NCBI RefSeq assembly: GCF_051903065.1
Contig: NZ_CP178438.1
From: Escherichia coli
GTDB lineage: Bacteria; Pseudomonadota; Gammaproteobacteria; Enterobacterales; Enterobacteriaceae
Strand: one strand, 5' to 3'
Length of the DNA: 64,000 bases
Below the pieces are notes generated by a model. It had not been told where the DNA came from and made no database searches. It saw only the letters and a list, made by a program, of their open reading frames with translations. This document shows positions 28,806 through 32,535 of this stretch, piece by piece; position 1 is the first letter of the stretch, and every line of letters starts with the position of its first letter. The translations under genes were made by a program, and so were the position numbers.

Positions 28806-29394
28806 ATGAAACTGAAAAAACTCCCCGGGTTTAGTTTAGGACTTATTGCTCTGGCGGTGGGTAATGCATATGCAACACAATTGTTGGATGATTATAGTAT
28901 AATTTCCTATATAACCGATGAAGAATCGCCGATTCAAATCAAAGATAATACTTTGAAAAGTAATGAAGAATATCTAACCACTGAAGACGAAAGTCATGCT
29001 GTGAAAGTGGATGACGGTGTAACTAGATATATAAATAATGCCAGTGTGATGACTAGTGGTGATGGATCTTATGGTATTTCTGTTGATAGTCAAAACAAAG
29101 TATTATATATAAGCGATAGCGATATTAAGACCTCTGGAAGCGTATCTAACAAAGAAAATAACCAAGATGTTAATGGAGGGATAACAGCCAGCGCAGTAGT
29201 CAGTGAATTTGGTGGCACCATCGTTATGAATGGTGATAATTTAGTCGAGACGGGGGGGGCATATTCAGCGGGACTTTTAAGTCAGGTTAATGATTCTGGA
29301 AATGTGGAAAATAACACTCGTCTTGAAACCACAGATAAAACGATCATTGTTACCTCTGGGGAAAATGCAGTAGGTGTTCTTGCATGTTCAAGTC
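28806..29394 (+). pseudogene. ycgH: Autotransporter gene, 5' part (signal peptide and passenger start), interrupted by IS903
   Basis: Sec signal MKLKKLPGFSLGLIALAVGNAYA; the reading frame runs into the IS left end and stops inside the inverted repeat. Confidence 0.85.
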
Positions 29395-30451
29395 GGCTTT
29401 GTTGAATAAATCGAACTTTTGCTGAGTTGAAGGATCAGATCACGTATCTTCCCGACAACGCAGACCGTTCCGTGGCAAAGCAAAAGTTCAAAATCACCAA
29501 CTGGCCCACCTACAATAAAGCCCTCATCAACCGTGGCTCCATAACTTTCTGGCTGGATGATGAAGCTATTCAGGCCTGGTATGAGTCAGCAACACCTTCT
29601 TCACGAGGCAGACCTCAGCGCTATTCTGACCTTGCCATCACGACTGTGCTGGTCATTAAACGCGTATTCAGGCTGACCCTGCGCGCTGCGCAGGGCTTTA
29701 TTGATTCCATTTTTTCTCTGATGAACGTTCCGCTACGCTGCCCGGATTACAGCTGTGTCAGCAGGCGGGCAAAGTCGGTTAATGTCAGTTTCAAAACGCC
29801 CACCCGGGGTGAAATCGCACACCTGGTAATTGATTCCACCGGGCTGAAGGTCTTCGGTGAAGGCGAGTGGAAAGTCAAAAAGCATGGCCAGGAACGCCGC
29901 CGTATCTGGCGTAAGCTGCATCTCGCCGTTGACAGTAAAACACATGAAATCATCTGCGCTGACCTGTCGCTGAACAACGTTACGGACTCAGAGGCCTTCC
30001 CCGGGTTAATCCGGCAAACCCACCGGAAAATCAGGTCAGCCGCCGCCGATGGCGCTTACGATACCCGGCTATGTCACGATGAACTGCGGCGTAAGAAAAT
30101 CAGCGCGCTTATCCCTCCCCGAAAAGGTGCGGGTTACTGGCCCGGTGAATATGCAGACCGTAACCGTGCAGTGGCTAATCAGCGAATGACCGGGAGTAAT
30201 GCGCGGTGGAAATGGACAACAGATTACAACCGTCGCTCGATAGCGGAAACGGCGATGTACCGGGTAAAACAGCTGTTCGGGGGTTCACTGACACTGCGTG
30301 ACTACGATGGTCAGGTTGCAGAGGCTATGGCCCTGGTACGAGCGCTGAACAAAATGACGAAAGCAGGTATGCCTGAAAGCGTGCGTATTGCCTGAAAACA
30401 CAACCCGCTACGGGGGAGACTTACCCGAAATCTGATTTATTCAACAAAGCC
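29395..30451 (+). mobile_element. IS903-family insertion sequence (IS5 family), complete, 1057 bp
   Basis: 18-bp terminal inverted repeats ggctttgttgaataaatc / gatttattcaacaaagcc; 1057 bp end to end; flanked by a perfect 9-bp direct repeat gttcaagtc (29386-29394 and 30452-30460). Confidence 0.9.
29472..30395 (+). CDS. IS903-family DDE transposase
   Basis: ORF fills the element; IS903-like start region recognised at DNA level; start assigned to the GTG at 29472 (track start is an upstream TTG at 29427); exact start uncertain. Confidence 0.85.
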   Translation: MAKQKFKITNWPTYNKALINRGSITFWLDDEAIQAWYESATPSSRGRPQRYSDLAITTVLVIKRVFRLTLRAAQGFIDSIFSLMNVPLRCPDYSCVSRRAKSVNVSFKTPTRGEIAHLVIDSTGLKVFGEGEWKVKKHGQERRRIWRKLHLAVDSKTHEIICADLSLNNVTDSEAFPGLIRQTHRKIRSAAADGAYDTRLCHDELRRKKISALIPPRKGAGYWPGEYADRNRAVANQRMTGSNARWKWTTDYNRRSIAETAMYRVKQLFGGSLTLRDYDGQVAEAMALVRALNKMTKAGMPESVRIA

Positions 30452-32535
30452 GTTCAAGTCCTGGAGAGTCTCGAACATGTGTCGATGCTGTAGATGATGA
30501 AGTTAGTGATTCTAACAGTTACGAAGTTATTAGCCGTGCTGATTTAAAAATGAATGGTGGTTCCATAACAACTAATGGCATTAATAGCTATGGTGCTTAT
30601 GCTAATGGGAAAAAAGCATATATTAATTTAGATTATGTGGCACTTGAAACTGTGGCTGATGGAAGTTATGCAGTTGCTATTCGACAAGGTAACATTGATA
30701 TAAAAAATAGTTCTATTACAACAACCGGCACTAAAGCCCCCATTGCAAAAATATACAATGGTGGAGAGTTATTTTTTTCCAATGTCACCGCGGTATCAGA
30801 ACAAGATAAAGGAATATCAATTGATGCATCAAATATCGATTCTCAAGCCAAAATAGCACTATTAAGTGTTGAACTTTCAAGTGCTTTGGATAGTATTGAT
30901 GTTAACAAAACTACAACGGATGTAAGTATCCTTAATCGAAGTATTATCACACCTGGTAATAATGTTCTGGTTAATAATACTGGAGGTGGCTTAAACATAA
31001 TTTCGTCCGACTCTACTCTAAATGGAGCGACTAAACTCGTTAGCGGCACAACCACGCTGAAGCTTTCAGAAAACACAATCTGGAATATGAAAGATGACTC
31101 CGTTGTTACCCATCTGACTAATTCAGACAGTATTATCAATCTTTCGTATGATGATGGTCAAACATTTACCCAAGGAAAAACATTAACTGTAAAAGGTAAT
31201 TATGTCGGTAATAATGGTCAGCTTAATATCCGCACCGTATTAGGTGATGATAAATCGGCTACGGACAGACTTATTGTTGAGGGTAATACTTCGGGTTCAA
31301 CTACCGTCTATGTGAAAAATGCTGGAGGAAGCGGCGCGGCCACGCTAAACGGGATCGAACTTATAACTGTGAATGGCGATGAATCTCCAGCAGATGCCTT
31401 CAGACAAGGTGATGCAAGGATTGCAGCTGGAGCTTTCGAATATCAACTAAAACAACAAGGCAAAAACTGGTATTTGACAAGTTATCAGTCAGTGAATGAG
31501 GAGGATAACAGCTCAGAGGGAAATTCAGAATCAACAGAAACGCCCACCCCCGTCCTGCGCCCCGAAGCTGGAAGTTACGTCGCTAACCTGGCAGCCGCTA
31601 ACACTCTTTTTGTTATGCGTCTGAACGATCGTGCAGGTGAAACGCGTTACATCGATCCTGTAACTGAACAGGAGCGTTCAAGCCGACTTTGGCTACGTCA
31701 AATTGGCGGACATAATGCCTGGCGTGACAGCAACGGACAGTTGAGAACGACCTCGCATCGCTACGTCTCGCAGTTAGGGGCCGATCTGTTAACCGGTGGT
31801 TTTACCGACAGTGACAGTTGGCGTTTGGGAGTGATGGCTGGTTATGCCCGCGACTACAACTCAACTCATTCCAGCGTGTCGGATTATCGTTCGAAAGGGA
31901 GTGTCAGAGGCTATAGCGCAGGGCTGTATGCCACCTGGTTTGCCGATGACATCAGTAAAAAAGGCGCATACATTGACGCCTGGGCGCAATATAGCTGGTT
32001 TAAAAACTCGGTGAAAGGGGATGAATTAGCCTATGAATCCTATAGCGCGAAAGGCGCAACCGTCTCGCTGGAAGCGGGTTACGGCTTTGCCCTGAATAAA
32101 TCCTTTGGTCTGGAAGCGGCGAAATATACGTGGATCTTCCAGCCACAGGCACAGGCTATCTGGATGGGCGTCGATCATAATGCGCATACGGAAGCCAATG
32201 GCTCACGTATTGAGAATGACGCAAATAACAACATCCAGACCCGACTTGGTTTCCGCACCTTTATTCGTACTCAGGAGAAAAACAGCGGTCCGCACGGTGA
32301 CGACTTTGAACCTTTTGTTGAAATGAACTGGATCCATAACAGTAAAGATTTTGCTGTCTCAATGAACGGAGTGAAAGTCGAACAAGACGGGGCGCGTAAT
32401 TTGGGGGAAATTAAACTTGGCGTAAATGGCAATCTGAATCCGGCGGCCAGCGTCTGGGGTAATGTGGGCGTGCAGCTGGGTGATAATGGCTACAATGACA
32501 CCGCAGTGATGGTGGGCCTGAAATATAAGTTCTGA
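30452..32535 (+). pseudogene. ycgH: Autotransporter gene, 3' part (passenger plus C-terminal beta-barrel), in frame with the 5' part once IS903 and one repeat copy are removed
   Basis: Removing 29395-30451 plus one target-duplication copy joins ...ACSS to PGESRTCVDAVDDEV...MNGGSITTNG with no stop; C-terminal translocator ends ...VMVGLKYKF. Confidence 0.85.

Follow-up and report, generated by a model that had tools for sequence, protein, structure and literature searches.

An IS903B insertion that splits an otherwise intact ycgH autotransporter gene in Escherichia coli

The insertion sequence IS903B disrupts various enterobacterial genes, among them mgrB in Klebsiella, where the disruption gives rise to colistin resistance; terminal inverted repeats of 18 bp are the value of IS903 itself. 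IS903B is 1,057 bp long and is placed in the IS5 family (PMC5001619, Table 2), IS903 duplicates 9 bp of its target (PMC2577343, Table 1) and prefers sites that read WTTYA-N9-TRAAW (PMC2577343), and deletions adjacent to IS903 have also been described (PMC11708052). On the function of ycgH, a literature search yielded a single paper, in which the gene is listed among pseudogenes and has a ChIP peak for EσS in E. coli K-12. Within the window, the whole 64-kb stretch of E. coli DNA analysed here, ycgH is divided into two parts by an element of this kind (Table 1), and we put at roughly 95% the probability that this arrangement arose when IS903B, in one simple transposition, entered codon 197 of a ycgH that had until then been intact. 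The locus thus resembles mgrB::IS903B of Klebsiella in its element, in the simple mode of insertion, in the 9-bp duplication and in the null allele that would result, but differs in its target, here an apparently dispensable autotransporter gene without known selectable phenotype. It also resembles the K-12 pseudogene (b4491), which occupies the same ymgF–ymgD locus with approximately 97.4% nucleotide identity and is likewise non-functional; what breaks the K-12 gene, however, is a frameshift together with an internal stop and no insertion sequence, whereas the allele described here is intact but for the element. The split gene is already annotated as such in RefSeq, and the finding is an ordinary one.

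Table 1 Coordinates of the inserted element and of the interrupted ycgH gene, given as positions in the window
Feature	Position	Strand	Description
5′ part of ycgH	28806–29394	+	Codons 1–196 plus one base; signal-peptide-like N-terminus and start of passenger
Target-site duplication, left copy (9 bp)	29386–29394	.	GTTCAAGTC; single copy at the empty site of ECNB21-M121
Complete IS903B (assigned by sequence)	29395–30451	+	1,057 bp between the copies of the target duplication; 100% identical to known IS903B copies
Left terminal inverted repeat	29395–29412	+	GGCTTTGTTGAATAAATC; side upstream of the transposase gene
Transposase gene	29427–30395	+	322 aa from TTG at 29427 (RefSeq); same orientation as ycgH
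Right terminal inverted repeat	30434–30451	-	Reverse complement of the left end
Target-site duplication, right copy (9 bp)	30452–30460	.	GTTCAAGTC
3′ part of ycgH	30461–32535	+	Remaining passenger, autochaperone and beta-barrel; stop codon at 32533–32535

The boundaries of the element are sharply defined. Read across positions 29300–30560, the junctions follow the order …GCAT GTTCAAGTC / GGCTTTGTTGAATAAATCGA … TCAGATTTATTCAACAAAGCC / GTTCAAGTC CTGGAG…. In a scripted comparison, each end proved to be the reverse complement of the other for exactly 18 bases (GGCTTTGTTGAATAAATC) before the match breaks off at base 19, and a repeat finder placed the two direct copies of GTTCAAGTC immediately against the element at a spacing of 1,066. 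The sequence-only reading had proposed an element of 1,057 bp, bounded by inverted repeats of 18 bp and flanked by a direct repeat of 9 bp, all of them perfect and to be checked by exact alignment; on such alignment, both the repeats and the duplication hold at the positions listed in Table 1. Nine matching flanking bases would be expected by chance with a probability of 4^-9 (about 4e-6). The inverted-repeat 18-mer occurs at only two sites in the window, even when two mismatches are allowed, and at none by expectation from 100 shuffles of the window. Because the same search, at up to two mismatches, returned no further IS903B end in the 64 kb that would signal a composite transposon, we rejected that structure.

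Along its whole length the element shows 100% identity to plasmid copies in Citrobacter, Salmonella, E. coli and Klebsiella, with at least 5,000 matching plasmid records, and the same 100% identity to many chromosomal copies in E. coli; among the matches listed, the RefSeq label of the transposase is ‘IS5-like element IS903B family transposase’. Its single transposase gene is annotated in the longer form given in Table 1, and in a shorter form of 307 aa, beginning at the GTG at 29472, in strain MB06233. The protein covers the whole of the NCBIfam profile NF033579 (‘IS5 family transposase’), at profile positions 1–289 of 289, with 357 bits where the cut-off is 140 bits, and it matches the Pfam models DDE_Tnp_1_5 (4.6e-39) and DDE_Tnp_1 (8.4e-33). 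By sequence, then, we assign the element to IS903B, a member of the IS903 group within the IS5 family, as the identity to annotated copies and the profile score bear out for the family assignment made earlier. The full-length identity, the end-to-end transposase match, the length of 1,057 bp and the 9-bp duplication indicate a copy that is complete and presumably active. With known IS903B it shares the length, the 18-bp inverted repeats, the 9-bp duplication and the single DDE transposase open reading frame; the element itself shows no difference, and only its target is unusual, in that the flanks depart from the preferred motif.

The insertion point lies after codon 196 and one further base, that is, in codon 197, in the passenger region of ycgH. 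When the 5-bp flanks, TGCAT and CTGGA, are read directly against WTTYA-N9-TRAAW, one of five positions fits on each side. Because this fit is poor, the site would be classed as a non-preferred IS903 target; the motif expresses a preference and not a requirement.

Joining the two ycgH parts at one copy of the duplication yields a stop-free open reading frame of 887 codons plus stop (2,664 nt), which is identical at 2,664 of 2,664 bases to the uninterrupted, annotated ycgH of E. coli ECNB21-M121 and corresponds to WP_047624469.1, ‘autotransporter YcgH’. In that genome, a lone GTTCAAGTC stands at the empty site. Comparison with the intact annotated gene revealed no extra frameshift or stop in either flanking segment. 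The restored protein contains an Autotransporter barrel (PF03797) at residues 606–865 (5.7e-41), an AC_1 domain (PF18883) at residues 410–526 (2.5e-29) and a Pertactin match (8.1e-09), the AC_1/pertactin segment spanning residues 410–536 (all Pfam); it scores 374 bits against TIGR01414, for which the cut-off is 16 bits, and ends in …KYKF, with an aromatic last residue. Read by eye, its N-terminus, MKLKKLPGFSLGLIALAVGNAYA/TQ, resembles a Sec signal peptide in its basic n-region, its hydrophobic core and its A-x-A motif. The passenger and barrel matches identify the ycgH product, at the level of sequence, as a type Va (classical) autotransporter, a class with a 12-stranded translocator barrel at the C-terminus. 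Accordingly, the sequence-only reading was right about a restored frame of about 887 codons free of additional lesions, and about the passenger and the barrel, for which Pfam and TIGR01414 vouch, while the signal peptide that it also named has been read by eye only.

This integrity bears directly on whether the element might have landed in DNA that was already dead, in which case the insertion would be old or irrelevant. Broken ycgH genes are common: in BW25113, a derivative of K-12, the gene is labelled ‘frameshifted; internal stop’; in OkiPb01695 it is divided into two open reading frames; in GPEC1446 it is frameshifted; and a frameshift or stop also affects it in the strains of loci L003, L005 and L006. 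The halves at this locus nevertheless rejoin without stop or frameshift into the very allele that is annotated as intact, and a 97.8% identical allele is likewise intact in strain AST20. We therefore regard prior decay as very unlikely and, as far as sequence integrity goes, would exclude a pre-existing pseudogene. Before the simple insertion that we favour, ycgH was intact and, we infer, expressed and functional.

The distribution of the junction points to its age. Apart from three SNPs, the window is the same as positions 1527956–1591955 of NZ_AP045789.1, from E. coli 23CRST027, a strain from human faeces in Ecuador. Across 5,426 complete E. coli genomes, no strain other than 23CRST027 and 23CRST031 has the junction. 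When 24 kb of flanking sequence are compared, ECNB21-M121 comes out well ahead of all other genomes, with an identity that rounds to 100.0% and a score of 44,289 bits, where a perfect match would reach 44,311; the next genome stands at 99.4%. Divergence is zero in the element, in the duplication and in ycgH. Since the duplication is perfect, the element and ycgH are undiverged, the nearest relative has an empty site and two of the 5,426 genomes share the junction, the insertion appears recent, as had been suggested from the sequence, and lineage-specific. We propose that IS903B, an IS5-family element with a DDE transposase, inserted into the part of ycgH that encodes the passenger domain, and that filling in of a staggered 9-bp target cut would have generated the GTTCAAGTC duplication; the event would fall in a recent ancestor of 23CRST027 and 23CRST031, after its split from ECNB21-M121-like strains. 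We saw no sequence that contradicts a simple insertion.

The same comparisons weigh against junctions created by misassembly, or by recombination between IS903B copies that left the endpoint of an inversion or deletion. The 20 places in the host chromosome that match IS903B could mislead an assembler or recombine with one another, deletions adjacent to IS903 are on record (PMC11708052), and one such case, in MB06233, lies 24 bp away. A perfect 9-bp duplication at the junctions argues otherwise, as do the contiguity of the two flanks at the empty site of ECNB21-M121, the conserved gene order on both sides, which runs intact from bluR-pdeG-ymgF through to ymgD-minE, and the occurrence of an identical structure in two separately assembled complete genomes; an origin by artefact or recombination is thus extremely unlikely.

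The simple transposition would make ycgH::IS903B a null mutation. RefSeq lists the 5′ part as a pseudogene fragment that begins at 28857, not at 28806, and the 3′ part as a pseudogene ‘missing N-terminus’. The truncated 5′ open reading frame runs to 29405 and ends in …ACSS-RLC-stop within the inverted repeat of the element, so that the N-terminal product would comprise 196 native residues followed by RLC, its stop codon being supplied by the insertion sequence. The 3′ part has neither a start codon nor a signal peptide of its own, its longest internal open reading frame extending from 30550 to 32535, and the portion that encodes the barrel would be cut off from promoter, start codon and signal peptide. 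No promoter-like site from which the 3′ ycgH fragment could be driven turned up when the surroundings of the element's right end were scanned; the scan gave 4 matches in total against 4.6 expected, which is the level of shuffled sequence. The gene downstream of ycgH, ymgD, is on the opposite strand, and a polar effect on the neighbours is therefore not expected.

Loss of the gene was probably of little moment. Because ycgH is a pseudogene in the reference strain K-12, it may already be dispensable, and its loss here would be neutral or nearly so. At least 80% of ycgH is covered in only 2,135 of the 5,426 genomes, many strains carrying divergent or partial alleles, and the gene appears to decay repeatedly, through frameshifts, apparent truncations and other IS903-type insertions. 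The case is a textbook-clean example of gene inactivation by an insertion sequence, of little consequence and with no new mechanism.

Precise excision, by which the sequence-only reading took the inactivation to be revertible, could in principle restore ycgH exactly, to judge from the empty-site allele. Such excision of insertion sequences occurs by rare slippage between the target repeats, is independent of transposase and is favoured by long inverted repeats, while those of IS903B measure only 18 bp. Reversion by slippage between the two 9-bp repeats is therefore possible but probably very rare; a literature search on precise excision of IS903B found nothing relevant.

Copy number bears on the source of the element. 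Places matching IS903B number 20 in the host chromosome and 12 in ECNB21-M121, and the median is 2 among E. coli genomes that have any; donor copies were therefore plentiful, and an active source of IS903B in the host is plausible. One could go further and suppose positive selection for the insertion: a burst of IS903B would be remodelling the cell surface, and to lose a surface-exposed autotransporter would be of advantage in the gut niche of this clone. This excess of copies agrees with that view, as do the many independent inactivations of ycgH and the approximately 9 IS903-type places that the collection shows in the 3.9-kb pdeG–ycgH region, where about 4 are expected if the 4,732 chromosomal places are spread uniformly. 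Neutral decay of a dispensable gene, however, predicts recurrent loss equally well, and a roughly twofold excess is within what the insertion tolerance of non-essential DNA and shared ancestry would give, so that we consider positive selection improbable and do not take 9 places against 4 for a meaningful hotspot. On the sequences, selected loss and neutral decay of ycgH cannot be told apart. A broader proposal, in which the ycgH insertion is a product of ongoing IS903B expansion and the repeated, independent hits reflect selection against the autotransporter or the c-di-GMP phosphodiesterase PdeG, seems to us quite improbable. As a simple insertion, the junction could serve as a marker of the 23CRST027/031 clone and as a data point on the activity of IS903B and the recurrent decay of ycgH.

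Other IS903-type elements lie in pdeG–ycgH in at least five other lineages, at five different sites; four of these five carry perfect 9-bp duplications of their own, and one is accompanied by an adjacent deletion. We rejected a hotspot shared at base resolution, given that the sites in other genomes all differ from the present one. The nearest junction is that in MB06233, where an identical IS903B (0 mismatches) is joined to ycgH 24 bp upstream of the junction described here. Unlike the present insertion, this copy is in the opposite orientation and lacks a target duplication, and the stretch that reaches from part of pdeG through the beginning of ycgH has been lost. The structure fits an adjacent deletion, in a strain unrelated to this one and independent of the insertion described here.

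IS903B matches 20 places per chromosome in the source-like strains 23CRST027 and 23CRST031 (NZ_AP045789.1 and NZ_AP045800.1) and 12 in ECNB21-M121, their closest relative, and the median is 2 among E. coli genomes with at least one match. IS903B may thus have undergone a recent expansion in the source-like clone. Comparison of the window with NZ_AP045789.1 revealed three single-base differences, at window positions 36671, 43108 and 59874, so the source of the window is a closely related sister isolate or a different version of the assembly rather than this record itself.

An IS903B copy adjoining ycgH was also present in E. 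coli MB06233 (NZ_CM129883.1), where the element occupies positions 4001-5057 of L007, the ycgH-locus stretch taken from that strain, and its equivalent window position is 29371. This copy is identical to the window element (0 mismatches) but lies in the reverse orientation, has its ycgH junction 24 bp upstream of that in the window and lacks a target duplication, and a deletion in MB06233 has removed the 5′ end of ycgH together with DNA reaching into pdeG. An adjacent deletion caused by IS903 is the apparent origin of this structure, and the strain is unrelated to that of the window. MB06233 originates from Ecuador (Galapagos), the same country as the lineage of the window.

Across E. coli, ycgH is strongly polymorphic. 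Only 108 E. coli genomes carry a sequence with at least 99% identity to the window allele, and many ycgH alleles have no more than the barrel half in common with it (coverage 40-58%). The lesions that inactivate or truncate the gene differ between K-12, OkiPb01695 and GPEC1446. Downstream of ymgJ lies a remnant of a second autotransporter, which is present in all other strains examined at the ycgH locus.

Features of the window outside the ycgH insertion
Feature	Window position	Strand	Remark
Second autotransporter remnant, barrel fragment	33850-34194	+	annotated 'missing N-terminus'
LRR gene, small hypothetical ORFs and cvrA pseudogene	50423-54216	-	LRR gene and ORFs between dadX and cvrA
Leucine-rich-repeat (LRR) protein gene	50423-51859	-	adjoins cvrA
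cvrA pseudogene	52546-54216	-	annotated as without C-terminus
Accessory cluster	57177-63603	-	between ymgE and treA

The DNA between dadX and cvrA resembles an accessory insertion by which cvrA was clipped; ECNB21-M121 has the same leucine-rich-repeat gene. The accessory cluster further along the window encodes a TonB-dependent receptor, ModD, a SAM methyltransferase and a FecCD-type iron ABC transporter (ATPase, permease and binding protein).
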